Source: Gammaproteobacteria bacterium
GTDB lineage: Bacteria; Pseudomonadota; Gammaproteobacteria; UBA4575
Direction of reading: 5' to 3'
Assembly: GCA_965221955.1 (NCBI GenBank)
Contig: CBDCTA010000002.1
Location: forward strand, 156,929 to 220,928
DNA: 64,000 nt
A program made the translations under genes and the position numbers. Under the pieces are notes generated by a model. The model was not told the origin of the DNA and did no database searches. It saw nothing but the letters and a program-made list of their open reading frames with translations. Shown here piece by piece: positions 10,081 through 62,992 of the stretch (its first letter is position 1; each line of letters opens with the position of its first letter).

Positions 10081-10127
10081 GGTCAGTTTGCTCCTGCAAA
10101 ACCGGCATACCATACATCCGTGTATAT
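10081..10127 (-). repeat. GGA-loop double-hairpin repeat
   Basis: Reverse complement ATATACACGGATGTATGGTATGCCGGTTTTGCAGGAGCAAACTGACC; same architecture as copies at 14161 and 14264. Confidence 0.75.
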
Positions 10128-10159
10128 AATATTAAGCAAAAGAGATCGAGAAAGTGGAC

Positions 10160-10207
10160 GACTGCATGGATGCAGGAGGTAGAGCATCGCATGGAGTAGT
10201 AGCCGAG
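10160..10207 (+). repeat. GGA-loop double-hairpin repeat
   Basis: GACTGCATGGATGCAGGAGGTAGAGCATCGCATGGAGTAGTAGCCGAG, closely similar to 62279-62325. Confidence 0.85.
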
Positions 10208-10278
10208 TGCATTAATGAATACATGAGCATTTCGAGAATTCTTTTAACGACATATCAGAATAAACCAGAGTTTCCATA

Positions 10279-11703
10279 ATGGCGTGGGAATATATAGTTG
10301 TCATCGATCAAGGTACGCATTCCACGCGTGCGGTGATCTATAATCGCTCAGGCGAATCCATTTTTAAGTCTCAAAAATCGATTGACCTCTTTTATCATGA
10401 CACTGGCCACATCGAACAAAATGGCCAGCAAATTCTAAATTCGTGTCAAACAGTATTAAATGAAGCGCATGAATATATTGAGGAAAACAATTTACAAAAT
10501 ATAGCAGCTGCACTTACTACACAGCGTTCTACAGTACTTGCTTGGGATGCTGATACTGGAGAAGCCATTACTCCAGCCTTGAGTTGGCTCGATACTCGCG
10601 CACAAGACAAGTTAAAAAACTTTCCTGTTGAAGAGAGTGTTATTAAAGAAAAAACAGGTTTGCCTTTGTCTCCTCACTATGGAGCTTCTAAGTTGCAATG
10701 GCTGCTTGAGCATGATGAAAAAGTTATCCAGAAGCAACAGTCTAAACAGCTTGTATTTGGACCGCTTGCAGCGTATTTAATATTTAACTTAATCGAAAAT
10801 CAGCCATGTTATGTGGATTATTCGAATGCGCATCGAACGTTGTTATGGAATTTACAAACTAGAAAATGGGATGAAGAATTGTTGAATGCTTTTTCGATTG
10901 ACTCCTCCTGCTTGCCTGAACCTGTTCCAAATCAATTTGAGTATGGAAAAATTAAGCAGTTTGGTTACCCGCTTGTGCTCGTAAATGGAGATCAAAATAG
11001 CGCAGTTTATGGATATGGAAAGCTTGAAGACCAAACCAGTTTTATTAATATTGGAACAGGTGCTTTTGTGTTGGCAATCCGTCAGCATCGACCAATATTA
11101 AATACACAATTGCTTTCTAGCATCACATTCAGTACCGATAAATACCAAGAATATGCTTTGGAAGGCACAGTGAATGGCGCGGGAGCAGCACTCTCATGGG
11201 CTGAAGAAGAATGGGGTATTAATAATATTGAAAAGGTGCCATGGAAGCATGTAGATAATGTACCCATATTCCTGAATACAGTAGGTGGGTTAGGTTCACC
11301 TTTTTGGCGTAGCGATATATCCCCTAGATTTTTGCATACAGATCATTCGCATCAGGATTATACGAATGAACAATGCATGGCTGCGTTGATGGAAAGCATT
11401 GTATTCTTAGTCACTATAAATATTGAAGAAATGCATGAGCATGGAGTGAAGTCTAAGCAGCTATTAATTGCGGGTGGAATGAGCAAAGATTCGCATCTGT
11501 GCCAATGTATAGCAGATTTGAACTCAGTGCCTGTTGTTGCATCCAGTTTCAAAGAAGCGACTTCTCGTGGTGCAGCTTGGTTAGTCATGCAACAAGCAGG
11601 GTGGGGAGTACCTAATAGTAAGTATTTTTATCCGACAGGGAATCAATCACTAGTATCTCGATATAATCAATTTAGGTCTGCACTAAAAGGAATTGCACAT
11701 TGA
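10279..11703 (+). CDS. glpK: FGGY-family carbohydrate kinase, glycerol kinase-like
   Basis: IDQGTHSTRA, TTQRST, GDQ and YALEG motifs; operon with glpQ/glpD-like genes. Confidence 0.8.
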   Translation: MAWEYIVVIDQGTHSTRAVIYNRSGESIFKSQKSIDLFYHDTGHIEQNGQQILNSCQTVLNEAHEYIEENNLQNIAAALTTQRSTVLAWDADTGEAITPALSWLDTRAQDKLKNFPVEESVIKEKTGLPLSPHYGASKLQWLLEHDEKVIQKQQSKQLVFGPLAAYLIFNLIENQPCYVDYSNAHRTLLWNLQTRKWDEELLNAFSIDSSCLPEPVPNQFEYGKIKQFGYPLVLVNGDQNSAVYGYGKLEDQTSFINIGTGAFVLAIRQHRPILNTQLLSSITFSTDKYQEYALEGTVNGAGAALSWAEEEWGINNIEKVPWKHVDNVPIFLNTVGGLGSPFWRSDISPRFLHTDHSHQDYTNEQCMAALMESIVFLVTINIEEMHEHGVKSKQLLIAGGMSKDSHLCQCIADLNSVPVVASSFKEATSRGAAWLVMQQAGWGVPNSKYFYPTGNQSLVSRYNQFRSALKGIAH

Positions 11704-12431
11704 TGAATAGACTGGTCGCTCATCGTGGCGATATGACAAATTATCCTGAAAACAGTGTATTGGCATTACAAAGTGCAGCACTTCTTGGTTATCAGTATCT
11801 TGAGTTAGATATTCAGCTATCAAAAGATCATCAACCAGTTGTGATGCATGATGAAAGCCTCGATCGAACAACCGGTGTTAATAAGAAGGTATGGGATTTT
11901 ACTAGCAATGAATTGGAATCAATTTCGCTATTGTTTCCAGAACAATTAAAAGAAAAGCGTGAGTTGCTATTTATTCCAAGTCTTAAGCGAGTGATAGAAC
12001 AGCTTAATCACTATTCAAGACTAAATGTATTTTTTGAAATTAAAAAAGAAAGCATAAAAAAATTTGGTTTAGAAGAAGTTGTAGATCGAGTGTTGGAAGT
12101 GCAACGGTTAGCCAAATTTAATGTGATTATTATTTCATTTCTCGCAGATGTCATTGAGTATGTAAAAACTAAACAGAATAATTCTACAGGTTATGTGCTA
12201 AAAAAATATAATAAAAAGTATTATTCAACAGCTAAACAGTTACAACCTGATTATCTGTTTTGCAATATCAAAAAAATAGATCGGCCTAACGAGTTATGGA
12301 AAGGCGCCTGGAAATGGGCGCTTTACGATATTAAAAACCCTGCATTCGCTTATGAGTTATTAGAACAAGGTGTGGATTTCATAGAAACCGGCGATATTAT
12401 TAAGCTGAGTAACTCAGAATATTTCCAATAA
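11700..12431 (+). CDS. Glycerophosphodiester phosphodiesterase family
   Basis: VAHRG, PENS and ELDIQLSKD..PVVMHD..LDRTT motifs. Confidence 0.9.
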   Translation: MMNRLVAHRGDMTNYPENSVLALQSAALLGYQYLELDIQLSKDHQPVVMHDESLDRTTGVNKKVWDFTSNELESISLLFPEQLKEKRELLFIPSLKRVIEQLNHYSRLNVFFEIKKESIKKFGLEEVVDRVLEVQRLAKFNVIIISFLADVIEYVKTKQNNSTGYVLKKYNKKYYSTAKQLQPDYLFCNIKKIDRPNELWKGAWKWALYDIKNPAFAYELLEQGVDFIETGDIIKLSNSEYFQ

Positions 12432-12434
12432 TTC

Positions 12435-13616
12435 ATGAATTATGAAGTTGCAATTATTGGTGGTGGAATCCATGGAGTGGGTGTTGCACAAGCGGCGGCT
12501 GTGCGCGGTTATAAAACTGTTCTTTTGGAACAATATGATCATCTTGCGGAAGGAACTTCGTCGCGCTCAAGCAAATTGATTCATGGTGGTTTGCGTTATT
12601 TAGAACAGTTTGAATTTTCTTTAGTACGTGAATGTTTAATAGAGCGTAGCTATCTGTTAAAAAATGCACCAGATTTAGTCAAACTCACACCGGTTTACAT
12701 CCCTATATATAAGAGTTCAAAGCGATCTCCTTTGACGATACGCGCAGGACTTTCTTTATATGCATTGTTAGGTAATCTGAGCGCAGATGCGCGTTTTAAG
12801 AAAGTATCCAAGAGTAATTGGAACCAACTACATGGTTTAAATCAACAAAATTTGCGTGCTGTGTATCAATATTATGAAGCGCAAACCGATGATAGCTTAT
12901 TAACAAAAGCCGTAATGAACTCAGCACAAGAATATAGTGCTGAACTGATTCTTAATGCAAAGGTAAGTAACCTTAAACTTGAGCATGATCAGTGCAGACT
13001 TACCTATGTAAATTCATCGGGCCAAGAAAAAGAACTCACTAGTACGGTTGTTGTAAATGCAGCAGGACCATGGGCTGCAAACGTTGTGGATTGTGTACAA
13101 CCTATACAAAAAAATGTGAAAGTAGATTTGGTGCAAGGTGCACATATTGTACTGCCTATACAACTAGGCGAAGTTATTTTTTATATTGAAAGCCCTAAAG
13201 ATCAACGTCCTATATTTTTGATGCCGTGGTATGGCGAAACGATGATCGGCACTACAGAAAGTATTTTTGAAGGTGACCCTGCTAAAACCTATCCACTTGA
13301 ACAGGAAATAGGGTATCTATTAGAAGCATTTTATTTTTACTTTCCTGAGTATAAAGATAAAAATTTAGCAATTAGTAAAAAATTTTCAGGTTTACGTGTA
13401 TTACCAAGAAGTCGAAAAAACGCAAACCAACGTTCACGCGAGACCATCTACCTAAGAGATCGCAAACATAAGCCTAGGTTGTTATCTATTTTTGGTGGAA
13501 AATTAACAGCTTATCGCGCCACTTCAGAACATGTAATGAAATATATAGAACCGTCTTTGTCTAAAATCAATACTTATGAAGACACTAGGAAATTAAAGTT
13601 ATCTAAACCTCAATGA
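12435..13616 (+). CDS. glpD: FAD-dependent glycerol-3-phosphate dehydrogenase/oxidase
   Basis: IIGGGIHG, GTSSRSSKLIHGGLRYLE, NAAGPW and GGKLTAYR motifs. Confidence 0.9.
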   Translation: MNYEVAIIGGGIHGVGVAQAAAVRGYKTVLLEQYDHLAEGTSSRSSKLIHGGLRYLEQFEFSLVRECLIERSYLLKNAPDLVKLTPVYIPIYKSSKRSPLTIRAGLSLYALLGNLSADARFKKVSKSNWNQLHGLNQQNLRAVYQYYEAQTDDSLLTKAVMNSAQEYSAELILNAKVSNLKLEHDQCRLTYVNSSGQEKELTSTVVVNAAGPWAANVVDCVQPIQKNVKVDLVQGAHIVLPIQLGEVIFYIESPKDQRPIFLMPWYGETMIGTTESIFEGDPAKTYPLEQEIGYLLEAFYFYFPEYKDKNLAISKKFSGLRVLPRSRKNANQRSRETIYLRDRKHKPRLLSIFGGKLTAYRATSEHVMKYIEPSLSKINTYEDTRKLKLSKPQ

Positions 13617-13625
13617 GTGCTTTGT

Positions 13626-14102
13626 TCAAAGATTTATAGAATTACAATATTCTATGTAACTCTCATGTATTGAAATATTTTTATTATTAGCTAATTGTTC
13701 CAGATCATAGAGTGTTTTTTTAAATTCATCTTCTAAGATATTAAAAAACACATCCGTTAATGGATGTTTTCCAGTAGGTAGGGCGATGACTTTTTGTTTG
13801 AATTTAATTGAAAAAATAACATCTCTTTTAAATAAAATTTTTACTGCAAATACCCAACGCCAATCCCAAGAATAGGGTGCAAGAGAATCTTTACCTGCAT
13901 AGATGTCTAACAATTCGTCATCTTTTGCTACATCTTCGCTAAATATTATGGCTTGATATAAGTGGTTACTGTTTGAACAAATCAAGTCAGCCTCAACAAG
14001 ATCAGATTTGTTTGAATGATTACTGAGTTCTTTATAGAGAGTAGGGTAGAATAGCCGCAGAAAAGCTAAAAACTTAGGGTAATGCTTAGCCGAATCCATC
14101 AT
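13626..14102 (-). CDS. Hypothetical protein
   Basis: 158-aa AT-rich ORF, no recognised motif. Confidence 0.6.
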   Translation of the reverse strand: MMDSAKHYPKFLAFLRLFYPTLYKELSNHSNKSDLVEADLICSNSNHLYQAIIFSEDVAKDDELLDIYAGKDSLAPYSWDWRWVFAVKILFKRDVIFSIKFKQKVIALPTGKHPLTDVFFNILEDEFKKTLYDLEQLANNKNISIHESYIEYCNSINL

Positions 14103-14160
14103 GCACGGATACTGTGCTAATCCAAATCATCTATCAACCCGTTATAGTCTTTTCATGCGC

Positions 14161-14210
14161 GACCACCATGGATGGTGGAAGTGCAGATTTTGCAGGAGCA
14201 AAAATCTGCC
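14161..14210 (+). repeat. GGA-loop double-hairpin repeat
   Basis: GACCACCATGGATGGTGGAAGTGCAGATTTTGCAGGAGCAAAAATCTGCC. Confidence 0.85.
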
Positions 14211-14263
14211 AAGTAGCTCAGCCGTGATGGGCAGGATACCCAAACGTCGTGAAAGACAAGGAC

Positions 14264-14315
14264 GACCGTCATGGATGACGGAAGTACTAAAAATGCAGGA
14301 TGCAATTTTCAGTGC
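14264..14315 (+). repeat. GGA-loop double-hairpin repeat (nested)
   Basis: GACCGTCATGGATGACGGAAGTACTAAAAATGCAGGATGCAATTTTCAGTGC; stem 1 covaries with the 14161 copy. Confidence 0.8.
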
Positions 14316-14395
14316 GTCGGAAGCGACGAGAGTACTGCAGTGCGAAGCACTGCCAGTTAAGGTTATAGTTATTTTTTAAATTGGTTGGTTAATAT

Positions 14396-14472
14396 GCGCC
14401 CGTAGCTCAGCTGGATAGAGTACCTGGCTTCGAACCAGGTGGTCGGGAGTTCGAATCTCTCCGGGCGCGCCA
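14396..14472 (+). tRNA. tRNA-Arg(TCG)
   Basis: Same body as tRNA-Arg(ACG), but the anticodon arm is CCTGGCT-TCG-AACCAGG; CCA end. Confidence 0.96.
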
Positions 14473-14516
14473 TTAAATTTATAGCCTTTCAGGCTATAAA
14501 TTTAATGGCGTGTTTT
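14468..14516 (+). terminator. Perfect 20-bp hairpin overlapping the tRNA 3' end, possible terminator
   Basis: CGCCATTAAATTTATAGCCT-TTC-AGGCTATAAATTTAATGGCG followed by TGTTTT. Confidence 0.6.
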
Positions 14517-14532
14517 GAGTTATTCGATGGCC

Positions 14533-14631
14533 GAGTTCGACAAATCGGTAAGACAGCAAATTTGGACGTCACGTTAGGTGGCGTATGAGCATAGCGAATG
14601 TAGAGTTATGGATGACTCGAATCAGTCTCTC
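14533..14631 (+). repeat. Degenerate tRNA 3'-end copy with a structured insertion in the T-loop
   Basis: GAGTTCGA + ~83-nt insert + AGTCTCTC versus tRNA GAGTTCGAATCTCTC. Confidence 0.55.
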
Positions 14632-14654
14632 AAGATACCCTTAATTAAAATTTA

Positions 14655-14879
14655 TTAATCGTCTTGATGTTTATCAAAGTATTCTTGAAATTCAGCTTGT
14701 GAAATATTGGTTTCAGTGATTTCCAGGCCACCAACTTGTGTTGCAGTATTTTTTCTGCGTTCTTTGAGTACCATATTTCCATTTAAATCTTCGAGTGGAA
14801 ATTTGTTTAGTTGAGTAACGGATCGGCGTTCACTACGCAGGGATACTTCACCAGGGGTTTCAATCGTTCTGAATTTCAT
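14655..14879 (-). CDS. Small hypothetical protein, ERR-FPL-D-G-ERR motif family
   Basis: Shares its motif with ORF 37761-38018; start may be 14879 or 14945. Confidence 0.75.
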   Translation of the reverse strand: MKFRTIETPGEVSLRSERRSVTQLNKFPLEDLNGNMVLKERRKNTATQVGGLEITETNISQAEFQEYFDKHQDD

Positions 14880-14961
14880 TTTTCTTATTAATAAATTCTC
14901 ATAAATACAAGTAGGTATGATAATTCTTAGAGTAATTCTGTTCATGTAGGAAAATGAAAAG

Positions 14962-14977
14962 TGTGAGCGAATTCACA
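14962..14977. promoter_or_regulatory. CRP-type binding site
   Basis: TGTGA-GCGAAT-TCACA, perfect TGTGA-N6-TCACA in a divergent intergenic region. Confidence 0.65.
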
Positions 14978-15055
14978 ATGTTATAGAGCATTTCCTTTCA
15001 ATGTATGTGGCTATATGTGCTCAATAGACTTTGATAATAGAATTGTTTTACACAA

Positions 15056-15520
15056 TTGAAATATTCAAATAAATTTTTTCTCGTCGTATGCTTGCTTATA
15101 TCAATTACTGCGTGCAGTGACGATGCTGAGCTTAGTCCATTCACTAGCGATGGTTGTTCACTTTTTCCTGATAGTTCTTTAATTACTCAACAAGACTGGT
15201 GTGAGTGCTGTTTTCAGCATGATTTAGCGTATTGGAAAGGTGGTACAGAAGAGGAACGTGCGCATGCGGATCTTCAGCTTAAAGAGTGTGTATTTGAAAA
15301 AACACAGGATGAGGCCTTAGCAAAAGTAATGTATGAAGGGGTGCGTTTTGGTGGCAGTCCATATTTTTATAATTGGTATCGCTGGGGATACGGTTGGTCT
15401 TATCTGAATAATCACCGAGGAAAGTATCAGGTGTTGACAGAAGCTGAGCAGCAACAAGCAAAAAAGCTTATAGAACAATATCTTGTAAACAATCAAAAAA
15501 ATTATTGCGAAGCCCATTGA
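15056..15520 (+). CDS. Lipoprotein with phospholipase A2-like CxxHDxxY motif
   Basis: Lipobox LISITAC; SDGCS...WCECCFQHDLAYWKGG...AD..LKECV. Confidence 0.7.
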   Translation: MKYSNKFFLVVCLLISITACSDDAELSPFTSDGCSLFPDSSLITQQDWCECCFQHDLAYWKGGTEEERAHADLQLKECVFEKTQDEALAKVMYEGVRFGGSPYFYNWYRWGYGWSYLNNHRGKYQVLTEAEQQQAKKLIEQYLVNNQKNYCEAH

Positions 15521-15565
15521 ATGTTCTCCATAAGTTCTCTATGATGAGAACTTATGGAGAACATT
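15520..15565. promoter_or_regulatory. Palindromic lexA operator with two GTTC-N7-GTTC boxes in opposite orientation
   Basis: AATGTTCTCCATAAGTTCTC-TATGAT-GAGAACTTATGGAGAACATT; perfect 20-bp arms, covering the lexA RBS. Confidence 0.8.
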
Positions 15566-16156
15566 ATGTTGACTGAACGCGAACAGACCACTCTACAATT
15601 CATTCAAGATTATATTGCTAAGCACCGTAAAGCACCGTTGTTAACGGAAATTGCTGCGGGCTTAGGTATTCAGTCAAAAGGCGTTGTACACCGGTATTTA
15701 TCTACTTTAGAAGAACAGGGTTATATACGCCGGCATCAAAAGCATCGTGGCATCGAATTAGAAGGCCATCCTGATTGCGATGAACTACCACTATTAGGAC
15801 GCATTGCTGCCGGTAAACCCATTGAGGCGATTGAAAATCGTGAGCTGATTAACTTTGCAAACTTATTAGGTGGCCCCAACCGTTATGTATTGCAAGTAAA
15901 AGGCCATTCAATGATTGACGAAGGCATTCGCAATGGTGACCTTGTAGTAATTGAACAAGCGAGTACTGCGCGTAGTAACCAAATTGTTGTAGCACTCATT
16001 GATGGTGAAAATGCGACCTTAAAAAGAATTAAATTTCCAAGTCGAGATGTTATTCGTTTAATTCCTGCGAATAAAACTATGCAACCTAAAGAATATTCAG
16101 CTGACCGTGTGACCATACAAGGTGTGTTAGTTGGGCAAGTCAGAATGTATGAATAG
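15566..16156 (+). CDS. lexA: Transcriptional repressor LexA
   Basis: N-terminal winged HTH, GRIAAG cleavage site, GHSM serine and ATLKR lysine; ATG 15566 has a GGAG RBS (15554 is the alternative). Confidence 0.95.
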   Translation: MLTEREQTTLQFIQDYIAKHRKAPLLTEIAAGLGIQSKGVVHRYLSTLEEQGYIRRHQKHRGIELEGHPDCDELPLLGRIAAGKPIEAIENRELINFANLLGGPNRYVLQVKGHSMIDEGIRNGDLVVIEQASTARSNQIVVALIDGENATLKRIKFPSRDVIRLIPANKTMQPKEYSADRVTIQGVLVGQVRMYE

Positions 16157-17442
16157 TGTATGAAGCTGAATTCTCAACACTGAAGCCTTCAGGGCTGAAA
16201 TCTTCTGGATCTAAATCCCCTAGATCTAAATTATGGTCTCGAGCAATTGTATTCGTCGATATGGATGCTTTTTTTGCCAGTATCGAACAGCATGTGCGTC
16301 CTGAATTAAAAGGTAAGCCCATTGGTATCACGAATGGTCTTACTGGCACATGTTTTATTACTTGTTCCTATGAAGCCAGACAGTACGGAATAAAAACGGG
16401 TATGCGTCTTAAGCAGGCGCGCCAGTTATGTCCGCATGTGCAGCAAATACCTGCAAGAGCGGAGCTGTACGCAAAAGTATCTACAAAAATAATGTCTGCT
16501 TTGCAAGGTGTTACTCCTGATATAGAAGTATTTTCAGTAGATGAAGCCTTTCTTGATATTACTCATTGCCAAGGTATCTATAAAAATCCTCTGCACGCTG
16601 GAGAACTGGCCAGAAAAATTGTTAAAGAAGTAGGTGGAGTAAGCTGTAGTGTAGGTATTAGTGGTGATAAAACGACTGCAAAACATGCGGCTAAAGTAGT
16701 AAAACCTAATGGTTTATTAATGGTGCCACCTTGGCAAGCACGCGAGCACTTGCGAAATGTACCCGTAACCGAGCTATCTGGAATTGCTGGCGGTATTGGA
16801 GAGTTTCTTAATGATAGAGAAGTTTATGTCTGTGGCGACATGATCAAGTTGCCTATAGGTGAACTTGCCAAACGTTATGGAAATATAGGTCGTCGTATTT
16901 GGTATATGGCGCAAGGCTTGGATCCAGAACTACTAAATAAAACGGTAGCAGCACCAAAATCGATTGGGCATGGAAAAATTATGCCGCCTAATACTAGAAG
17001 TCTTAAAGTGTTAAAAACTTATTTACATCATATGAGTGAAAAAGTTGCAGCGCGTTTACGTAAACATGCACTTGAAGCGCGAGTTTTTTTTATCGGGTTT
17101 CGTACTGATTATGGCTGGCTTGCGAATAAGTTCCAAACGGAAGAACCTACAGATGATGGAAAGAAAATTAGAGTGTTAGCTAAAAGGTTGTTAGATGCTT
17201 GGAGCGGTGAAGGGGTATTTCAAGTGCAAATTACTGCGATTGAATTACGTCCACGTGGCAACCAATTGTCATTTTTTGATGTGGTGGATGAACAACGTCA
17301 GTGTTTGAATCGTGCTATGGATGAAATTAATGAACGCTTTGGTGAGTTTGCGTTGGCACCAGCTACTTTATTAAAACGTTCTGATATGCCAAATGTGATT
17401 GCACCATCATGGAAGCCAGTCGGACATCGTAGGACAGTATAA
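16156..17442 (+). CDS. dinB: Y-family DNA polymerase IV
   Basis: VDMDAFFASIE, SYEAR.YG.KTGM and SVDEAFLD motifs, QLSFF clamp-binding motif; coupled to lexA. Confidence 0.93.
   Translation: MYEAEFSTLKPSGLKSSGSKSPRSKLWSRAIVFVDMDAFFASIEQHVRPELKGKPIGITNGLTGTCFITCSYEARQYGIKTGMRLKQARQLCPHVQQIPARAELYAKVSTKIMSALQGVTPDIEVFSVDEAFLDITHCQGIYKNPLHAGELARKIVKEVGGVSCSVGISGDKTTAKHAAKVVKPNGLLMVPPWQAREHLRNVPVTELSGIAGGIGEFLNDREVYVCGDMIKLPIGELAKRYGNIGRRIWYMAQGLDPELLNKTVAAPKSIGHGKIMPPNTRSLKVLKTYLHHMSEKVAARLRKHALEARVFFIGFRTDYGWLANKFQTEEPTDDGKKIRVLAKRLLDAWSGEGVFQVQITAIELRPRGNQLSFFDVVDEQRQCLNRAMDEINERFGEFALAPATLLKRSDMPNVIAPSWKPVGHRRTV
16180..16239 (+). repeat. Degenerate in-frame 15-bp tandem repeat (4 units) at the dinB 5' end
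   Basis: CTGAAGCCTTCAGGG/CTGAAATCTTCTGGA/TCTAAATCCCCTAGA/TCTAAATTATGGTCT. Confidence 0.6.
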
Positions 17443-17640
17443 GCAAACTTGTTTGGCTTTAGATGAATCCGGGACACAGAAAGACAGTATGAGCAGGGTT
17501 TATTCGAAGTTAACCCGACAGAGCATCGTAGGACAGTATGAGCAAGTTTTTAAATTCAAAGTTGGCCCATGTACGTAAAACGGTATAAGTGCTTTGTTTG
17601 GTTTTAGATGAACCCAGGAGATTGAAGAACAATGTGAAGT
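17422..17640 (+). repeat. Degenerate ~49-bp tandem repeat (4-5 units) copying the dinB 3' end
   Basis: Core GACAGTAT-like motif at 17433, 17483, 17532, 17579 and 17628 (periods 50, 49, 47, 49). Confidence 0.85.
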
Positions 17641-17648
17641 AGATCACA
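17633..17648. promoter_or_regulatory. CRP-type binding site
   Basis: TGTGA-AGTAGA-TCACA. Confidence 0.6.
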
Positions 17649-17857
17649 AACGCGTTCACTAAAATCATAAAATTTGTAAATAAAAGCTATAAAATGCACC
17701 TAAAATCCGTAAGTTATGACCAATCATCATGGATTAACAGCCATTGAGGATTAAATCTAAGGTTTTCAAATAACACGCCGATACAATGAGTTACAGCTAT
17801 ACAGGATTAGTATAGCTAAGTTATAGGATATAACTAACGTATTGAAAAGGAGCATTC

Positions 17858-34939: not shown

Positions 34940-35677
34940 ATGGAAACACTTTGTTTAGATACACGTCGTGCACTTACAATCGATCCAGATTGTAGAGAAG
35001 AGCAGGTATTACAGCACCTCTCTTCTTGTGAGTCTTGTGCAGATTTTTTGCAAGGTATTAAACAGTTCGATCATAAACTTAAGTCAGCAGTTAATATCGA
35101 GGTGCCCGAAGGCTTAGCATCACGAATCATTCTTGCTCAACGCATGAGTGATCAGCCAGAGAATAACGTAACGCCAATAAGAAAAGTACATAAGAGGAGT
35201 GATTTTAAATGGATGTCACTAGCAGCAGCCATTGTGCTTGCGGTTGGGCTGTCATTGGGAATGTTTAAGTGGGGACAATCGTATGGTGTACAAAATGAAG
35301 TATTGGCACATATCGATAGTCATCTATATGAATTAGAAGAAGACCATAATGTAAAACTTGCTTCCTTAAACGAGTTATTACAGGAACATGGATTACTGGC
35401 AAATGAAGAAATTGGTTATGTCCGGCATGTATCGAATTGTCCAATCAAAGATAAAATGGTTCCTCATTTGGTATTAGGGGATGATCAAGGTAAACCGGTT
35501 ACGATTATGTATATACCATGGAAAAATTCTTCTAAGCGTGTTGCATTTAAGAACGAAAGATTCAATGGTGTTTTAGTAGGCGCGAAGAAAGGTAGTTTTG
35601 TGATTGTTTCAGAAGACCCTGCTTCATTGAAGCCAATTGAGAATCGCGTTATGAAATCTGTAGAAGTTGAAATCTAA
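34940..35677 (+). CDS. Putative anti-sigma factor (DUF3379-like)
   Basis: HLSSCESC zinc motif, single TM, directly after the ECF sigma. Confidence 0.85.
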   Translation: METLCLDTRRALTIDPDCREEQVLQHLSSCESCADFLQGIKQFDHKLKSAVNIEVPEGLASRIILAQRMSDQPENNVTPIRKVHKRSDFKWMSLAAAIVLAVGLSLGMFKWGQSYGVQNEVLAHIDSHLYELEEDHNVKLASLNELLQEHGLLANEEIGYVRHVSNCPIKDKMVPHLVLGDDQGKPVTIMYIPWKNSSKRVAFKNERFNGVLVGAKKGSFVIVSEDPASLKPIENRVMKSVEVEI

Positions 35678-35734
35678 GCATATGGATATGCGAATAAGAG
35701 TTGCAACATGGATGTTGCTTCATATTAGAGTTAG
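35677..35734 (+). repeat. GGA-loop double-hairpin repeat, left arm of an inverted pair
   Basis: 52/58 identical to the reverse complement of 36212-36269. Confidence 0.9.
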
Positions 35735-36133: not shown

Positions 36134-36163
36134 AATGTCCGCTTTGGGTCGTAAGCGGACATT
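36134..36163. repeat. 30-bp palindromic site
   Basis: AATGTCCGCTT-TGGGTCGT-AAGCGGACATT; second copy at 63297-63326. Confidence 0.85.
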
Positions 36164-36211: not shown

Positions 36212-36269
36212 CTAACTTTAATCTGATGCAACATCCTTGTTGCAACTCTTATTCACATATCCCTATGCT
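36212..36269 (-). repeat. GGA-loop double-hairpin repeat, right arm, overlapping the sat stop codon
   Basis: Reverse complement AGCATAGGGATATGTGAATAAGAGTTGCAACAAGGATGTTGCATCAGATTAAAGTTAG. Confidence 0.9.
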
Positions 36270-37449
36270 CACTCTGATAGTATTCCATTAAAATCTTCGC
36301 CACTTCAGGTCTTGCAAATTCTTTTGGTAAGTCTTCACCAGCGGCAAGCATCGCGCGAACTTTAGTTCCTGAAAGCAATACAAAATCTTCTTTTTCATGA
36401 TCAGGTGCATCACGCATCATGACTACTTTGTTTAGTTTCTTTGAATAAGCGGTATGGTCAGCGCGGAAGATTTCAATTTCTAATGCGCCAGCAGGAACTT
36501 CATCATCAAAAATTGTTTGTGCATCAAATGCACCGTAGTAATCACCCACACCTGCATGATCACGTCCAATAATGAAGTGTGTGCAGCCGCAGTTCTGTCT
36601 GAACACTGCATGTAAAACGCCTTCACGTGGGCCTGCATAAAGCATGTCAAAACCGTAACCGGTAACCATGACACTATTTGGTGGGAAGTAAACTTCTACC
36701 ATTTTGCGAATCGCAGCATCACGTATCGGAGCAGGGATGTCACCTTTCTTTAATTTTCCTAGCAACATATGAATGAGTACTCCATCCGCATTAACTGCTT
36801 CTTTAGCCATTTTGCATAATTCTTCATGTGCACGATGCATAGGGTTACGAGTTTGAAAACCTACAACAGTATTCCAACCGCGTTCCACAATTTCATCACG
36901 AATTTCAACTGCGGTTTTGAATGTGCCTTTAAATTCTTCGCTGAAGTAACTGTAGTTTAAAACTTGAATTGGACCAGAAAGTACATATTTGCCTAAAGAC
37001 ATAAAAGTAGCAGCACCGATATGCTCTGGGTCGGTAGTGCGATACACTTTTTCAGTAATATTTGTGATTTGTTCGCCGCTTAATTCTTCAATGGATTCGA
37101 TATCTTGAATCGCTAGTACAGGGTTTCCTTCAACGTTAGGGTCGCGTAAAGCAATTCTTTTTGCATCACCTATTGCGCTGACATCTTGAACTAAGTTAAG
37201 AACAGGTGTAGGCCAGAATAGTCCAGCACTGGTTTGCATTTTATCTGCAACAGAAATTGCATCGGCTGCTGTCATAAAGCCTTTTAGTGGAGTGAAATAG
37301 CCTGCACCTAACATCACAGCATTTGATGCGGCTGCAGAATTTACGACTATGGATGGTAAGCCTTCCGCTTCTTTTTCTAATTGTTTGCGTGTAGCTTCAT
37401 CGGCTACATATAAAGGCGTTAGTGTGTCCGATCCATGCGGCTTGATCAT
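36253..37449 (-). CDS. sat: Sulfate adenylyltransferase (Sat type)
   Basis: MIKPHG, FQTRNPMHRAHEEL, GRDHAGVGDYY and SGTKVR motifs. Confidence 0.97.
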   Translation of the reverse strand: MIKPHGSDTLTPLYVADEATRKQLEKEAEGLPSIVVNSAAASNAVMLGAGYFTPLKGFMTAADAISVADKMQTSAGLFWPTPVLNLVQDVSAIGDAKRIALRDPNVEGNPVLAIQDIESIEELSGEQITNITEKVYRTTDPEHIGAATFMSLGKYVLSGPIQVLNYSYFSEEFKGTFKTAVEIRDEIVERGWNTVVGFQTRNPMHRAHEELCKMAKEAVNADGVLIHMLLGKLKKGDIPAPIRDAAIRKMVEVYFPPNSVMVTGYGFDMLYAGPREGVLHAVFRQNCGCTHFIIGRDHAGVGDYYGAFDAQTIFDDEVPAGALEIEIFRADHTAYSKKLNKVVMMRDAPDHEKEDFVLLSGTKVRAMLAAGEDLPKEFARPEVAKILMEYYQSEHRDM

Positions 37450-54468: not shown

Positions 54469-54471
54469 TTT

Positions 54472-55488: not shown

Positions 55489-55501
55489 GTTAAACAAAAA
55501 A

Positions 55502-56260
55502 ATGGATTTAAGCGACGACGAACTATTGCGCTATAGTCGTCAAATTATGCTTCCGCAAATTGATATTAGTGGTCAGCAACAATTACTTAAGTCAAAGGTA
55601 TTGTTATTTGGTGCTGGTGGCTTAGGATCACCAATTGCCATGTACTTGGCAGCCAGTGGTATTGGTGAGCTCACTATTGTTGATCCAGATACGGTAGATC
55701 TTTCTAATCTACAACGGCAAATACTTTATCGTACACAAAATATTGGCGAAGATAAGGTGAATTCAGCTGAGCAAACTTTAAATGAACTTAATTCACAAAC
55801 TCATATTCGCACAATTAAAGCTACTTTGAAAAACGAAAAGCTTAACGAAGAAATTCAGCGGACTGATGTAGTGGTAGATGCTACGGATAATTTTGAATCA
55901 CGTTTTGCTATCAATGCAGCATGTGTTAAGAACAAGACTGCCTTAGTCACGGGTGCCGCAATTCGCTTTGAAGGCCAAGTCATGGTCTTTGATATGCAAG
56001 ATGAAAGCGCTTGTTATCAATGTTTGTTTGCGAATCAAGCTTATGACTCAAATGAAATAGAAGAAAGTTGCTCTGAAACAGGAATTCTTGGTTCTGTTAC
56101 GGGTCTAATTGGTTCTATTCAAGCCACTGAAGTGGTTAAGTTGTTAACCAATATTGGGCAGACGCTTTCAAATAGATTGCTATTGATAGATGCATTAAAT
56201 ATGGAATGGCATAGCGTAAAAATAAGCAAAGATCCTAAATGTGCAACGTGTTCTTGTTAA
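55502..56260 (+). CDS. moeB: Molybdopterin-synthase adenylyltransferase (MoeB/ThiF family)
   Basis: RYSRQI, GAGGLG, SNLQRQ, CYQC and terminal CxxC. Confidence 0.9.
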   Translation: MDLSDDELLRYSRQIMLPQIDISGQQQLLKSKVLLFGAGGLGSPIAMYLAASGIGELTIVDPDTVDLSNLQRQILYRTQNIGEDKVNSAEQTLNELNSQTHIRTIKATLKNEKLNEEIQRTDVVVDATDNFESRFAINAACVKNKTALVTGAAIRFEGQVMVFDMQDESACYQCLFANQAYDSNEIEESCSETGILGSVTGLIGSIQATEVVKLLTNIGQTLSNRLLLIDALNMEWHSVKISKDPKCATCSC

Positions 56261-58313: not shown

Positions 58314-58420
58314 TGAAAAATATCATGGAAATATACCGGAAAATATGCTCAGGCATACCAGGAACTTAATAATCATTGTCTATGTCAAATTTGTACATGG
58401 ACTCTATAGGGTGGAAAGCA

Positions 58421-59038
58421 ATGAAGCATAAGTCGATTATCAGTAGTTTTCTTTTTGGTTTAGCGTTGTCTGCGTGTGTAACCATAAACATTTATTTTCC
58501 TGCAGCGGCAGCTGAGGATGCTGCAAGAGTTATTGTGCGGGATGTTTTAAATGATGAAGAAGTGGAAGTTTCTGAAGAAAAAGAAACAACCTCCAATGAT
58601 CAAAGTAGCATGGAAACTATTGATAGTTTGCCTCACGCGTTTACAAGTATGGTATTGAACTTGCTTGTATCTCCCGCACACGCTGAAGCCAATATCAATA
58701 TCAACACTCCAGCAATTAGTGCATTGCGTGCGAGCTTGAAAAAGCGTGCAGCGTTACTCAAGTCATATTATGCGAGTGGGGCGGTGGGTTTGACCTCAAA
58801 TGCTAATGTGCAAATTCGCGATCAATCTTTAATTGCTCTTAAGGAACGTAACCAAGTTAAAAAATTAGTTGCAGATGAAAATAAGGAGCGTGCTGCTTTA
58901 TATGCAGAAATTGCACGAGCAAATGATCATCCAGAATGGGAAACTGATATTCGTGCTACCTTTGCACGCGTTTGGGTGGAAGAAGTTGCTACAGGTACTT
59001 GGTACCAGGATGCTTCAGGAAACTGGGTGCAAAAATAA
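58421..59038 (+). CDS. YdbL-family (DUF1318) lipoprotein with YnbE-like N-terminus
   Basis: LSACVTINIYFPAAAAE; EN.ER..LY.EIA..N and G.WYQ...G.W motifs. Confidence 0.82.
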   Translation: MKHKSIISSFLFGLALSACVTINIYFPAAAAEDAARVIVRDVLNDEEVEVSEEKETTSNDQSSMETIDSLPHAFTSMVLNLLVSPAHAEANININTPAISALRASLKKRAALLKSYYASGAVGLTSNANVQIRDQSLIALKERNQVKKLVADENKERAALYAEIARANDHPEWETDIRATFARVWVEEVATGTWYQDASGNWVQK

Positions 59039-59236
59039 GTATTTTAAGATTTAGCTACCTTTCGTCTTCTGGCCTATTGGTTTGCCTCATGAGCCAATAA
59101 GCTTATATCCGTCACTCAAATCTACCATCAATAGCTAGCAATCGTCGGACTATCGCTGAATGATTGCTTTCCTAGCTGAATCTAGGTATCTGCTACAATT
59201 CATTATTATGAATTCTAAGGCAGTGGTTATTCAATA

Positions 59237-60608
59237 ATGTGGTCACTTAAAGAAAAAATCAACGATAAGATTTGGGGTGTCAACATCAATTCGTTGCCAT
59301 GGTGGCAAGCGAGTCTGCTAAGTGTAGTGCGCTTTGTCTATGTCATGATTGTTGATTTCATAGACGGTCAATTCAATTTACGTGCCATGAGTTTGGTGTT
59401 TACAACTATGTTATCCATTGTACCGTTGATAGCAGTAAGTTTTTCTGTGATGAAAGCATTTGGTATGCATAATCAAATGGAGCCTATGCTTTTGCAATAT
59501 CTTGCTCCATTGGGTGCGCAAGGTGAAGAAATTGCTCAGCAAATTATGGGGTTTGTGAATAACATCAAAGTCGGGTGCATTAGGCGCTTTGGGATTATTG
59601 GTGTTGTTTTACGTAATAGCACGTTTGATTAAAAAAATTGAATTTTCGTTTAATTACACATGGAGAATACAGCAGACGGGTTCTTTGATTAGGCGTCTTG
59701 GAAATTATGTCGTCATCATGTTTGGGTTTGTATTTGTATTTGGTGCCTTAGCGGTAACAGGTACTGCAATGAACACAAGTGTCGCGCAAGCCATTCTTGC
59801 TAGTAGAGCCTTTTGGTACCTTATTAAGTTTTTCAACACGTTTAATTCCATATTTAATGATTATTGCAGCTTTTACGGTAGCTTATTTGTTTACTCCAAA
59901 TACCAAAGTTAGATTTGTGCCTGCTTTAGTTGGCGGCATTGTTGCAGGGTATTTTATGGCAAACTGTAGGCTGGGTATTTGCGACCTTTATTTCTGCATC
60001 AATGTCGACGAGCTATACTGCAATATATTCAAGTTTTGCTTTTTTGTTTGTATTTATGATCTGGTTGTGGTGGAGTTGGCTAATTTTACTTATTGGGTCC
60101 AGTGTTGCTTTTTATAAACAGCATCCCTGAGTATTTATACATTAACTCTCACGACCTTAATTTAACCAATAAGTCAAAAAGAAGAACTTGCTTTACAAAT
60201 AATGACTGGCAGTTGGTAAACGCTTTTATAATCATGAAATACCTATTGAAATTGATAATATAGTAAATGATTTAAAACTACCTAAACAATCTATTGAGCA
60301 ACAGTTAAATTTATTTGAAGAGCATGGTTATTATTAAGATACGGAATCAGATGACTCTAGCTTATGCACCTGCTCAGACCACTAGAAGAGCTAACATTGA
60401 AATCTGTGTTCGATACGGTTCGAGAGCCTGGACCAAATAGCCCATCTTAAGTCTATCATTGAATCAAAATAATTCAAGCATTCGAAATTTACTTGAAAGA
60501 AGTCGATGAGGTTTAGAACAGGTTTTAAGCACTAAAACGATTAAAGATATTGTTAAAGTGAAATTGAGTGATAGTGATGCAGTGATAGTCCTCTGTTATA
60601 AAAAATGA
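59237..60608 (+). pseudogene. YihY/BrkB-family membrane protein with C-terminal domain, multiply frameshifted (probably sequence error)
   Basis: RAMSLVFTTMLSIVP, IEFSFNYTW, PNTKV...AL.GG and IYSSFA...W....W.ILL.G spread over successive frames; end approximate. Confidence 0.75.
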
Positions 60609-60637
60609 GAAAAGCAGTGGAGCTAAAAGCCATATGA

Positions 60638-60997
60638 GTGAAGCTGGCTATAGAAGAATTAAAGCTAAAATTAAAAGAATTTGCTCAAGTGCGTGACTGG
60701 GAACAATTTCATAGCCCTAAAAATTTATCTATGGCTCTATCAGTTGAGGCTTCAGAACTATTAGAACATTTTCAATGGATGAGTGAAAAAGAGAGTTGTG
60801 AACTTACCCCGCAGAGGCATGCGGCTGTGGCGTTCGAAATGGCAGATATATTCATATTTTTGCTTCGTCTTTCAGATCAACTCAATATAGATCTTATGGA
60901 AATGACAAAGCGTAAAATGGAATTAAACGAAAAACGTTATCCAGTAGAGAAAGTAAAAGGAAGCTCTAAAAAATATAATGAGTATGATGATGCATAA
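60638..60997 (+). CDS. MazG-like nucleotide pyrophosphohydrolase
   Basis: RDWEQFHSPKNL.MAL..EASELLE.FQW, EMAD and NEKRYP motifs. Confidence 0.9.
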   Translation: MKLAIEELKLKLKEFAQVRDWEQFHSPKNLSMALSVEASELLEHFQWMSEKESCELTPQRHAAVAFEMADIFIFLLRLSDQLNIDLMEMTKRKMELNEKRYPVEKVKGSSKKYNEYDDA

Positions 60998-61049
60998 AGT
61001 CATATGATTATTTGATTGTGCTCCAACATTTCTATAATTAATTTAAACC

Positions 61050-62233
61050 GTGGAAGAACCCATTCAATCGCTCTCAATCGGCGAGAGTAAAATTACCATT
61101 TTAGGTACAGCACACGTGTCTCGTGCGAGTGCTGAAAAAGTACAACAACTTATTCAATCGGGTGAATTTGATGTCGTTTGCATAGAACTTTGTCCAAGCC
61201 GTCATAATGCAATGACAGATCCTAATGCACTAGCAAAAATGGATTTGTTTAATGTTATCCGAAGCGGTAAAGCCAGTATGGTAACTGCTAGTTTGGCACT
61301 TGGGTCTTATCAACAACGTATGGCAGAACAATTGGGGATAGAGCCGGGTTTGGAGATGAAGACCGCAATTAAACAAGCGGAAGAGAAAAACTTACCAATA
61401 GAGCTCATTGATAGAGAAGTAGGTACCACACTTAAGCGTGTTTATCATAATGTTCCATTTTGGAAACGTCTCTACATTATCGCAGGCTTATTCACGAGTG
61501 TAGTTTCTCGTGAGAGTGTTTCAGAAGAAGAGATTGAAAAATTAAAAAGTGGTGATTTGCTAGAAACTACTTTTGCTCAGTTTTCTGAAGATGCGAATGA
61601 CTTATTTATCCCTTTAATTGATGAGCGAGATCGTTACATGTCTGCAAAGCTATTAAAATCGCTTCAAATTTATCCTGGTAAAAGATTTATTGGCAGTTGT
61701 AGGAGCGGGGCATGTTAAAGGCATGGTGAATTATCTTAAAGAAAATTCAATACAGGCTGATGAAGTGATTGCCGAACTGGATGTTATCCCAAAGAAAAGA
61801 TCTTGGTTTAAATTTATTCCATGGGCAATTGTAGCGTTAATTATTTTTGGGTTTTATCTGGGTTTTCGCCAAGGTCCAGATTTAGGATGGAGCCTGATAT
61901 GGCAATGGGTTGTGATTAATGGCAGTTTGTCAGCGCTAGGTGCTGTAATTGCAGGTGCACATTTGCTGACAATTATTACTGCTTTTATAGCAGCACCGAT
62001 TACATCTTTGAATCCAACAATAGGTGCAGGCATGGTCACTGCAGCAATGGAGTTGTTTATACGCAAACCAACAGTAAGCGACTTTAGTGATTTAAGAAAA
62101 GATACGGCTTCCGCATTAGGGTGGCGTAAAAATAGGGTAGCAAAAATATTGCTTGATATTTGTATTGAGTTCACTAGGTTCTGCAATAGGAACCTATGTA
62201 GCGGGTTTTAGAATATTTGGACAATTAACCTAA
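61050..62233 (+). pseudogene. TraB/GumN-family (pheromone shutdown-like) protein, frameshifted near 61680 and 62160
   Basis: LGTAHVS, ELC..R and LIDERD.YM, then AVVGAGH in another frame, then APITSLNP.IGAG. Confidence 0.8.
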
Positions 62234-62260
62234 GTTCATGGACGGCCTATAGGAAAGTAA

Positions 62261-62340
62261 GAAGTGCAGAAATTGTATGACTGCATGGATGCAGGAGGTA
62301 GAGCAACGCAGGAGCATTTGCCGAGGAGCAACTTTCTGCC
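62261..62340 (+). repeat. GGA-loop repeat nested inside the GGA loop of another repeat
   Basis: Host GAAGTGCAGAAATTGT...AGGAGCAACTTTCTGCC; insert ATGACTGCATGGATGCAGGAGGTAGAGCAACGCAGGAGCATTTGCCG (62277-62323). Confidence 0.85.
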
Positions 62341-62379
62341 GATGCGCATATGCATCAAATATTCAAAATCGGATAGAGA

Positions 62380-62748
62380 TTAATAATCTTCATCCAAATT
62401 CTGCGATAAGAAAACTTCCTGAGTCTTGTCAATATAAAAGTCTCGCAAACAAGTTTTATTGGTTTGTGAATAAATCGTGTCATGGGTTACAAATTCGTAA
62501 GCACCATAAATTTTATCGATTAAATTCAAAACAATCACTTGTTCGTTATATGCGTTTCCTTGTTTAAGATATTGGTTAGTCACTTCTGTTTCATTTAGTC
62601 CAATATCTCGATTCATCGCGATCACCTGAGCTGCACTGGATTTCCACATGCAAAATCTTTTCATTTCAGGATATTCATCAGCAGTGGCAGGATTAGGAAT
62701 GACGAGAATAAGGAATAATGTTAAATAAAAACCTAACGTTTTTAACAT
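62380..62748 (-). CDS. Hypothetical secreted protein
   Basis: Signal peptide ending ATA; two Cys; GGGAG RBS. Confidence 0.75.
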   Translation of the reverse strand: MLKTLGFYLTLFLILVIPNPATADEYPEMKRFCMWKSSAAQVIAMNRDIGLNETEVTNQYLKQGNAYNEQVIVLNLIDKIYGAYEFVTHDTIYSQTNKTCLRDFYIDKTQEVFLSQNLDEDY

Positions 62749-62941
62749 TGTTAACTCCCTTTAACTGAGTGGTATCTTTATCTTAAGCGGCCAATAGGCA
62801 TAAAAGCTAAGCGTTGTTAGGTGTTAATATCTAAAGGGTTTGTATTGGCTGATGCCTGGGATATAAATTTTTTATTTATAAATGGCATGAAAAATATTGA
62901 TGTAAAGTTTCACGACAAGTGGTTTATTAATGCAGGGAAGT

Positions 62942-62992
62942 GAGCGCAAGGATGCGCGAATATGATGTCCATCAGGGATGATGCAACAGATT
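62942..62992 (+). repeat. GGA-loop double-hairpin repeat
   Basis: GAGCGCAAGGATGCGCGAATATGATGTCCATCAGGGATGATGCAACAGATT; stems covary with the 35677/36212 copies. Confidence 0.75.

Follow-up and report, generated by a model that had tools for sequence, protein, structure and literature searches.

Does a short, two-hairpin repeat scattered over a bacterial genome owe its spread to movement as DNA, or is it kept as a protein-binding RNA element? We asked this of a 64,000-nucleotide stretch of Gammaproteobacteria bacterium (lineage UBA4575; assembly GCA_965221955.1, contig CBDCTA010000002.1, positions 156,929 to 220,928 of the forward strand), hereafter called the window, to whose first letter all coordinates without a locus label refer. 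The original prediction had described at least eight copies of a repeat with two hairpins each, and had proposed a mobile unit of the repetitive extragenic palindromic (REP) kind that might spread binding sites for the regulator CsrA into untranslated regions (UTRs) or act as a distributed sponge. As an alternative it had offered that GGA is merely the recognition loop of a transposase of the histidine-hydrophobe-histidine (HUH) or REP-associated tyrosine transposase (RAYT) type. We confirmed that the window holds about nine copies of a small DNA repeat with two GGA-loop hairpins, namely all eight predicted copies, each in its place, on its strand and with both hairpins, plus a partial ninth. 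The copies originally placed at 10081(-), 10160(+), 14161(+), 14264(+), 35677(+), 36212(-), 62277(+) and 62942(+) correspond, in this order, to the units 10078-10130(-), 10157-10208(+), 14159-14213(+), 14262-14317(+), 35674-35724(+), 36222-36272(-), 62276-62326(+) and 62940-62990(+).

These copies form a specific family far beyond chance. Hairpins with a GGA loop as such are not enriched in the window, where we counted 390 of any kind against 365 in 20 shuffles and 13 paired ones against approximately 7.4; NGGA tetraloops on stems of at least 5 bp numbered 25 against 11.5, a figure that we count under the loose definitions and not as enrichment. The pattern CATGGATGNNGGARGTN{8,9}GCAN{0,1}GGA, which comprises hairpin 1, the linker and the second loop, matched four times in the window versus 0.00 times in 100 shuffles, and CATGGATG occurred six times on the + strand and never on the - strand. 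Covariance models for three subtypes of the repeat (R1, R2 and R3 for types I, II and III) recovered seven of the copies with 58.7-76.4 bits (E=7e-16 to 1e-24), the window copies being within the training alignments and the E-values therefore rough, and the likeness among the copies reaches outside the stems. One could still suppose that there is no family, and that the copies resemble each other as a by-product of base composition and ordinary terminator-like hairpins, as the G-rich + strand and the lack of enrichment of loosely defined hairpins would allow. However, the absence of pattern matches from the shuffles, model scores of up to 76 bits, more than 120 near-identical units in unrelated genomes and an exact 48-nt insertion polymorphism (see below) already refute this idea and leave it with next to no probability.

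The general module, approximately 48-55 nt long, opens with (A)CGAC, a short and conserved 5' tail. There follow a first hairpin, with C-A...T-G closing its NGGA loop, then GGAGGTAGA or GGAAGT as a conserved single-stranded linker, and lastly a second hairpin whose loop is of the AGGA type; stem sequences vary freely provided that pairing is kept. Type I, represented in the window by 10157-10208(+) and 62276-62326(+), reads ACGAC-CTGCA TGGA TGCAG-GAGGTAGA-hairpin with an AGGA loop-CCGAG. Type II reads CGAC-CCNNCA TGGA TGNNGG-AAGT-long hairpin with an AGGA loop and comprises 14159-14213(+), 14262-14317(+) and, as a weak member, 10078-10130(-). Type III (35674-35724(+), 36222-36272(-) and 62940-62990(+)) reads GTGAG-hairpin-GAATA(A/T)GA-hairpin, with both loops NGGA and closed by (C/T)A..T(G/A).

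The family is wider than the window alone could reveal. A genome scan with the type I/II pattern returned at least 121 stretches, against approximately nine random matches expected in the scanned genome collection by our own arithmetic. Loci outside the window are labeled with L and a number, and the taxonomy of the matched ones was taken from record titles and known lineage membership. Among the 120 matched loci listed, 113 belonged to Gammaproteobacteria of many orders, two to Mariprofundaceae and four to unspecific Proteobacteria, while a single Lachnospiraceae match lay in an apparent ABC-ATPase coding sequence and looks like chance; the window's own species was absent among the matches listed. 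The 133 pattern matches in these loci split cleanly into types I and II. A near-identical unit sequence is carried by Pseudomonas, Methylobacter, Sedimenticola, Pseudoalteromonas, Shewanella, Endozoicomonas and many uncultured Gammaproteobacteria, and the second replicons of Pseudoalteromonas hold 1-5 copies each, all intergenic and unannotated. No full-length type III relative was found in 78 other loci, and a single type III-like hairpin (GCAACA-NGGA-TGTTGC) recurred only in L041, L054 and L017. Searches for type II in plasmids and for type I in phages returned no match, and none of 5426 complete Escherichia coli genomes had a match over at least 80% of the unit; partial blastn matches occurred in two E. 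coli genomes only, both inside the gene pglX. In L051, three copies lie within a segmentally duplicated gene array. In the Endozoicomonas locus L109, the type I unit (293-344) lies approximately 150 nt downstream of a match to the 5' domain of a group II intron (59-145; RF01998, 64.8 bits), and this unit may be intronic.

The structure of the units is held by compensatory changes, as the original prediction had claimed from stem pairs that differ yet stay paired while the loops keep GGA. All the quoted pairs (CCACCA/TGGTGG versus CCGTCA/TGACGG, CAAC/GTTG versus CATC/GATG and CATA/TATG versus CGCA/TGCG) are present in the window. For type II (38 rows), 84.0% of the cells were paired versus 72.2% in shuffles, and double-sided changes numbered 77 versus 29.8, a value reached by 0 of 500 shuffles, with slid controls giving at most 57. 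For type I (84 rows), the corresponding values were 89.9% versus 85.9% and 36 versus 7.5, again reached by 0 of 500 shuffles. As approximately one third of the type I rows differ in the second arm (GCGAA/GCGAC...AGAGC/AAAGC), which is then incompatible with the helix as drawn, sequence conservation outweighs the structural evidence for this type. The three type III copies show compensatory pair differences in both helices. Positions fixed by the search pattern, including GGA, are not countable as conserved; outside the pattern, at least 90% conservation was reached in the ACGAC/CGACC tail, in CCGA and in the A and G that complete GTAG. This GTAG lies one base 5' of the type I hairpin 2, its A and G each being at least 90% conserved in the 84 rows and its remaining G and T being fixed by the pattern. 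Conservation falls off sharply at both unit ends. Left out of the alignments were 1 of 85 distinct type I rows (a nested copy in L011), 2 of 38 type II rows (A4) and 3 of 41 (A2; L010, L032 and L108).

Within the window, the copies differ in their state of preservation and in their surroundings. Unit 10078-10130(-) is a weak match (R2, 10.8 bits, E=0.15) with two NGGA tetraloop hairpins, TATACA-CGGA-TGTATG (10111-10126) and, inside an outer CCGG stem, TTTGC-AGGA-GCAAA (10087-10100), and it has a 15-nt core, TTTTGCAGGAGCAAA, in common with 14188-14203. In its neighbor 10157-10208(+) (R1, 67.1 bits), hairpin 1 is intact (CTGCA-TGGA-TGCAG, 10162-10175, with an NGGA tetraloop) and hairpin 2 is decayed; a glycerol-kinase-like gene begins 70 nt downstream, and the region 10140-10191 is 85% identical to 62259-62310 over 52 nt, 18 nt of which lie upstream of the unit. 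Two type II copies follow. The first, 14159-14213(+) (R2, 76.3 bits), has the NGGA tetraloop hairpins CCACCA-TGGA-TGGTGG (14163-14178) and GCAGATTTTGC-AGGA-GCAAAAATCTGC (14188-14203), and the second, 14262-14317(+) (R2, 58.7 bits; hairpin at 14266-14281), lies approximately 80 nt upstream of a tRNA-Arg gene (14396-14469). Between them stands an extra single GGA-loop hairpin, TGGG-CAGGATA-CCCA (14228-14242(+)), and the surrounding stretch holds seven GGA in 120 nt, with approximately nine in 14159-14340. The partial ninth copy (~14590-14625(+)) combines a type III-like linker, GCGAATGTAGAG, with the hairpin GAGTTA-TGGA-TGACTC; it was compared with type III by eye, and R3 gave no match to it at E<=1.

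The three type III copies score 72.3-76.4 bits with R3. Unit 35674-35724(+) (74.9 bits; hairpins 35678-35691 and 35703-35718) begins at the stop codon of an anti-sigma gene (34940-35677), whereas 36222-36272(-) (76.4 bits; hairpins 36255-36268 and 36227-36244) overlaps with its hairpin 1 the last codons and the TGA stop of a sulfate adenylyltransferase gene (36253-37449, -). The stems of 62940-62990(+) (72.3 bits; hairpins 62944-62957 and 62970-62983) differ from those of the other two by compensatory changes. Lastly, the type I unit 62276-62326(+) (R1, 72.1 bits; hairpin 62281-62294) appears to lie within the loop of hairpin 2 of what was a type II unit, now decayed, since its flanks, AAGTGCAGAAATTGT and AGGAGCAACTTTCTGC, when joined, resemble a type II second hairpin upon comparison with the type II consensus by eye. 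In the window, seven of the nine copies have the same sense as the gene nearest to them, upstream or downstream.

Units of this family are mobile, which the original prediction had rightly proposed; the evidence consists of nested copies, an exact 48-nt presence/absence polymorphism, sharp boundaries and tandem or composite arrays. In L011 we observed four type I units, one inside another, each at GCAGG^AGGTAG. Head-to-tail arrays, in which ...GCCG is directly joined to ACGAC..., occur in L034, L084 and L112. In at least 11 loci a unit stands between both arms of an unrelated palindrome, seven of these hosts being of the form CCCTCTCCC...GGGAG^AGGG and the remainder Pseudomonas-type GTGGGAG...CTCCCAC repeats. 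In approximately ten further loci, as in the window at 62276-62326, the unit lies directly 5' of an AGGA or AGGGA loop that belongs to a second hairpin resembling that of type II, and the first loop of a type I unit in L003 is in turn interrupted by an insert of 50 nt resembling an antisense type II-like unit. Insertions often occupy the loops of other hairpins, GGA loops of family members among them, yielding nested, tandem and mixed-orientation clusters. The flanks of type I units reached a complementarity of -15 kcal/mol or below in 30% of 84 true pairs versus 12% of mismatched controls (P=0.007). In L007, L018, L020, L070 and L095, the type I unit is part of a longer shared composite, with ...CTTTCCC/TTTTCCGC upstream and TAGA...CCTAAGTCCGACAGGCTCCTAG downstream. 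A conserved larger RNA was considered as the source of these shared flanks and rejected, as the neighboring genes differ; the recurrence of the composite in unrelated genera beside different genes suggests that composites also spread as units.

The clearest single case of insertion is found in pglX, the methyltransferase gene of a bacteriophage exclusion (BREX-1) system. Here, a full 48-nt type I unit stands in frame, adding 16 codons, in E. coli ZF34 (L121, 151-198) and in a Moellerella plasmid (L124), while an allele on an E. coli IncR plasmid (L123), collinear in all other respects, is without exactly those 48 nt. The ZF34 gene is also without 30 nt just upstream of the unit, which the L123 and L124 alleles have. 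The unit is present in two of 88 plasmid records that cover this region of pglX. The next 13 plasmid records listed have a span 18 nt shorter than the query, and the one that we aligned is without the unit and retains the 30 nt missing from ZF34.

The base 3' of the unit is nearly always A, usually within AGG, and the right side (A, then mostly G) is the conserved flank, whereas the left flanks of 80 type I units share no fixed word but only G/C richness. Terminal inverted repeats were not found, as the ends ACGAC... and ...GCCG(AG) do not match in this way. No target duplication was evident either; comparison of filled and empty pglX sites left only a 3-nt ambiguity (GAC), which was not seen at other copies.

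The orientation of the units relative to genes bears on what maintains them. We classified 71 type I and 34 type II units, that is, all matches of at least 40 bits in the loci together with the window copies, with lower-scoring and cross-type matches left out. Between co-directional genes, 16 type I units lay in sense and 13 in antisense, and for type II the numbers were 3 and 10; convergent genes flanked 14 type I and 3 type II units, divergent genes 7 of each type, and contig edges 11 and 9. More than half of the unit lay inside a predicted gene in 10 type I and 2 type II cases (12 of 105). Neither set showed a sense bias, so that for type I the comparison of strand with gene direction, proposed in the original prediction, gave no bias. 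With respect to GC skew, type II units were on the G-rich strand in 19 of 26 cases (P=0.03), several of these copies sharing a locus and hence not being independent. A second type of evidence came from neighboring hairpins that our search pattern had not picked. Within 200 nt of units there were 39 NGGA-tetraloop hairpins in 37,358 bp (1.04 per kb), compared to 41 in 832,691 bp (0.049 per kb) at more than 2 kb from units, an approximately 21-fold enrichment, while other tetraloop hairpins were not enriched near units (1.63 versus 1.50 per kb). Of the 39, 19 had the same orientation as the unit and 20 the opposite. GGA-loop hairpins hence attract each other on either strand, which fits insertion into hairpins at the DNA level and not selection for a sense RNA. 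Folding energies of single sequences and counts of GU pairs contradicted each other between types, so that neither consistently favored the GGA strand.

Taken together, the reading that we favor, with somewhat better than even confidence, is that the family consists of mobile DNA modules of the REP kind, very small (~48-55 nt) and non-autonomous, with paired GGA-loop hairpins as their hallmark, that often insert at another GGA-loop hairpin. Such modules would move as folded single-stranded DNA, catalyzed in trans by an enzyme encoded elsewhere, for which a nuclease of the HUH/Y1 type would be the best precedent; the invariant loops and linkers could then represent the recognition and target features of this enzyme. 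REP families likewise combine alternative complementary stem residues with a conserved unpaired GTAG (PMC3733652), and RAYT enzymes, according to PMC8266576, act on one folded DNA strand, some systems tolerating no change at certain loop positions. Like REPs, their mosaic clusters (BIMEs, bacterial interspersed mosaic elements) and REPINs, our units are short, palindromic and numerous (9 in 64 kb), mostly intergenic with some inside genes, and their stems vary by complementary changes beside conserved unpaired motifs, with GTAG just 5' of the second hairpin in type I only. They also form mosaic clusters in both orientations and are without terminal inverted repeats or target duplication, and REPs too are presumed to move in trans as folded single strands (PMC3733652; PMC8266576). 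At the same time, their loops are invariably NGGA, units are found inside one another at a constant site, CGAC and not CGTC precedes hairpin 1, and inverted neighbors are no commoner than direct ones (20 versus 19), which is unlike REPINs and BIMEs.

Other mobile elements offer partial parallels. Miniature derivatives of IS200/IS605 elements (palindrome-associated transposable elements) have hairpins near both ends, lack inverted repeats and target duplication, and follow a single-strand DNA logic (in part after PMC8266576). Our units share the hairpins near both ends and the lack of inverted repeats and target duplication but are far smaller (48-55 nt), have no TnpA gene nearby and, for type I, show no orientation bias relative to GC skew. 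The lack of terminal inverted repeats and of target-site duplication also separates them from classical MITEs (miniature transposable elements with inverted repeats). We found no description of the family, nor its sequence strings, in the searchable literature, though subscription journals or figures may contain one; nor did keyword searches, judged from their listings, bring up such a family in connection with CsrA and repeats, MITEs or REPINs. A GGA-loop family was likewise not found in the text or four supplements of the REP survey PMC3733652, its consensus figures lying outside the comparison, and PMC6006769 does not mention GGA loops.

Several observations weigh against a mobile module of the REP kind. 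No mobilizing gene was found: none of 87 open reading frames (ORFs) in the window scanned against NCBIfam or Pfam is a transposase, and 12 ORFs that adjoin or separate copies lying near each other, several of these copies in opposite orientation, are all housekeeping genes or without a match. Recurrent protein families among 1008 predicted flank proteins are generic (ABC, kinase, GGDEF-EAL, LysR, thiolase). In 1.23 Mb of loci, tblastn with E. coli RayT and the Y1 protein of L015 as queries gave one Pfam-confirmed Y1 gene, in L015, while L033 and L030 each held a weaker Y1-like match; none of the three is closer than ~3.5 kb to a unit, and no RAYT gene was seen beside any copy in the window or these loci. 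Moreover, the L015 gene (13493-13978, -; PF01797, E=3.4e-14), from a Methylobacter metagenome-assembled genome, is flanked on both sides by GTGGGAG...CTCCCAC palindromes and not by GGA modules (13400-14080). The suggested search for a RAYT/HUH gene flanked by these repeats came out negative in the window and these loci, the sole confirmed Y1 gene with inspected flanks having a different repeat. The units themselves depart from REPs in being built of two unlike hairpins in direct order, in having AAGT or GAATA instead of GTAG in types II and III, and, contrary to the known HUH rules, in showing no CT at the junctions on the GTAG-carrying strand; nor do they have the conserved 4-5-nt target at the left flank known from IS200/IS605 elements. 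REP-like repeats are usually species- or genus-specific, with a sequence tied to the cognate transposase, whereas the same consensus recurs here across several orders, a pattern that a very conserved host partner, CsrA for instance, would explain more readily. Type I units showed no GC-skew bias either (26 of 62 loci with the unit on the G-rich strand, P=0.25). To this we add that the orientation analysis relied on gene calls from a crude codon-usage caller, which recovers the window's annotated genes and misses short ones, that the loci were collected by means of a pattern in which the GGA positions are fixed, and that the mobilization mechanism is something we infer. The proposal that GGA is a HUH/RAYT recognition loop fits the neutral orientation better than a regulatory role does; no such gene was found beside any copy. 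As separate observations, the palindrome flanking the L015 Y1 gene is of the same kind as the type I insertion host in several Pseudomonas loci, and this gene adjoins a DNA methylase gene.

Could the modules instead be maintained as CsrA-binding RNA elements, serving as portable UTR sites or as a distributed sponge, with mobility as only their means of spread? The resemblance is close. The consensus for CsrA obtained by SELEX (systematic evolution of ligands through exponential enrichment) is RUACARGGAUGU, where AC/GU closes a hexaloop that contains GGA; RsmE binds ANGGAN loops, and a CsrA dimer can bridge sites 10-63 nt apart, all according to PMC7652899. As in CsrA/RsmA sites and the units of CsrB/RsmZ sponges, short hairpins of our repeats have GGA in their loops, next to the bases favored in SELEX, and several such loops occur per unit or cluster. 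By sequence match, the loops fall into the RUACARGGAUGU or ANGGAN context: C[ANGGAU]G is found in all subtypes, and of the eight listed copies seven have C-A-N-G-G-A-U-G in hairpin 1, whereas 36222-36272(-) has it in hairpin 2. In both 35674-35724(+) and 36222-36272(-), hairpin 2 has this sequence and hairpin 1 is TA-NGGA-TA. The fuller motif ACA-N-GGAUGU occurs in three hairpins of the window (10111-10126(-), 35703-35718(+) and 36227-36244(-)). Each unit has two to three GGA, spaced by approximately 7-25 nt and hence partly inside the dimer-bridging range. As hairpin 1 is a nearly optimal CsrA ligand, copies that are transcribed in the GGA sense probably bind CsrA. A consensus shared across orders is what a very conserved host protein partner would lead one to expect, the carriers among the matches listed are almost all Gammaproteobacteria, and the sense placement of seven of the nine window copies, like the nine or so GGA and weak RsmY-like score in 14159-14340, points the same way.

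Nevertheless, we regard CsrA binding as the reason for the family's maintenance as unlikely, albeit as its most serious rival explanation. The neutral orientation argues against it as the selected role, given that the sense-to-antisense ratios (16:13 and 3:10) and the 19:20 split of neighboring hairpins reveal no preference for a sense transcript, and within the window sense GGA counts are inflated because the + strand is G-rich and carries most of the genes. The invariant ACGAC, GTAGA and CCGAG lie outside the loops, and such conserved tails and linkers are unrelated to CsrA recognition. The stems of 5-11 bp exceed most SELEX hairpins, and very stable stems may be disadvantageous (PMC7652899). 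Furthermore, E. coli has CsrA, yet none of its 5426 genomes holds an intergenic copy, and the folding energies and GU counts do not consistently favor the GGA strand. Neutral orientation, unexplained tails and linkers, long stems and absence from E. coli therefore speak against CsrA as the family's reason, and the proposal that spreading CsrA sites is its purpose found no support. CsrA binding would then be a side effect or occasional exaptation.

A related idea, that the loci are separate Csr/Rsm sponge small-RNA genes (paralogues of the RsmX/Y/Z or CsrB kind) with their own promoter and terminator and not repeats, appears very improbable to us. It would account for clustered GGA hairpins in intergenic DNA and for paralogous pairs such as 10140-10191 and 62259-62310, and the best sub-threshold Rfam match, in a scan of 9900-14500 at E<=10, was indeed RsmY at 14220-14336, although with 19 bits (gathering score 57) and E=0.17. 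However, at gathering threshold Rfam identified only three tRNAs in the window, and nothing relevant was found in 20 short loci (E<=0.01) or in eight array loci (E<=0.5). Boxes of the GacA/UvrY type gave 26 matches with up to three mismatches versus 37.7 expected, none upstream of a unit, and neither promoter nor terminator patterns stood out at units. That units overlap stop codons, sit inside coding sequence and occur nested and inverted is unlike gene paralogues; being orientation-neutral and mobile as well, they differ from CsrB/RsmZ sponges. The sponge reading of the original prediction is likewise not supported: a Csr/Rsm family match and a GacA-type box are both missing, and E. coli, with its CsrA, is devoid of near-complete units.

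Mobility and CsrA binding could also be combined. The modules would then be transposable CsrA-binding sites, with two near-optimal hairpins, homing into GGA loops and building up multi-site arrays, or else CsrA might be a host factor that the element needs; we consider this unlikely, with a probability somewhat below that of CsrA binding maintaining the family.

Turning to the gene setting, the window has a G+C content of 38.3% and a GC skew of +0.107 on the + strand. It comprises a housekeeping run (cinA-like, recA, recX, alaS, aspartate kinase, csrA and tRNAs) followed by msrPQ and glycerol genes; its RecA is 94-97% identical to the nearest sequences in a protein collection. The csrA gene (63 aa; 7474-7665(+); PF02599, E=1.2e-26) is present, as the original prediction had stressed, and lies outside the repeat family; because it is part of the recA-recX-alaS-aspartate kinase run, its presence carries no weight for the interpretation of the repeats. 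The tRNA-Arg genes at 8155-8235 and 14395-14475 are 91% identical over 81 nt, and the latter has both type II units on its 5' side and a perfect 20-bp AT-rich palindrome with a T tail (14466-14512) on its 3' side. Another small repeat forms a GC-rich hairpin, GTCCGC...GCGGAC around a loop of 12 nt, and occurs at 36137-36160(+) and 63300-63323(-), i.e. in two copies of opposite orientation with zero and two mismatches (0.00 expected); both look terminator-like, and each is at most a few hundred bases from a type III unit. Directly 3' of a gene pair for a LexA-like protein and a Y-family polymerase (15554-17442) we noticed a 44-nt direct repeat (17449-17492 and 17594-17637; 77% identical, 145 nt apart). 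Two adjoining perfect hairpins with AGGAT-containing loops, AGCTATAC...GTATAGCT and AGTTAT...ATAACT, lie at 17795-17835(+) and are unrelated to the family in sequence. Finally, 59237-60117 holds three short overlapping ORFs, one of which partially matches the BrkB family over the first third of the profile only, and may represent a disrupted gene.

What makes this family of interest is that one unit of 48-55 nt has remained near-constant across many Gammaproteobacteria and inserts precisely, even in frame in a plasmid-borne defense gene of enterobacteria. The three covariance models allow annotators to mask or label the units, which are currently unannotated and invite false small-RNA or CsrA-target calls. 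Were the modules transposable CsrA sites, they would provide a route to the rewiring of the CsrA regulon and to the origin of decoy RNAs of the CsrB/RsmZ type, and the conservation of the loops across orders would reflect the conservation of CsrA. If the coincidence with CsrA ligands is functional, the family would offer a natural means of carrying sites of post-transcriptional control from place to place in genomes; failing that, it still indicates a very conserved machinery that recognizes GGA-loop hairpins and inserts DNA there.

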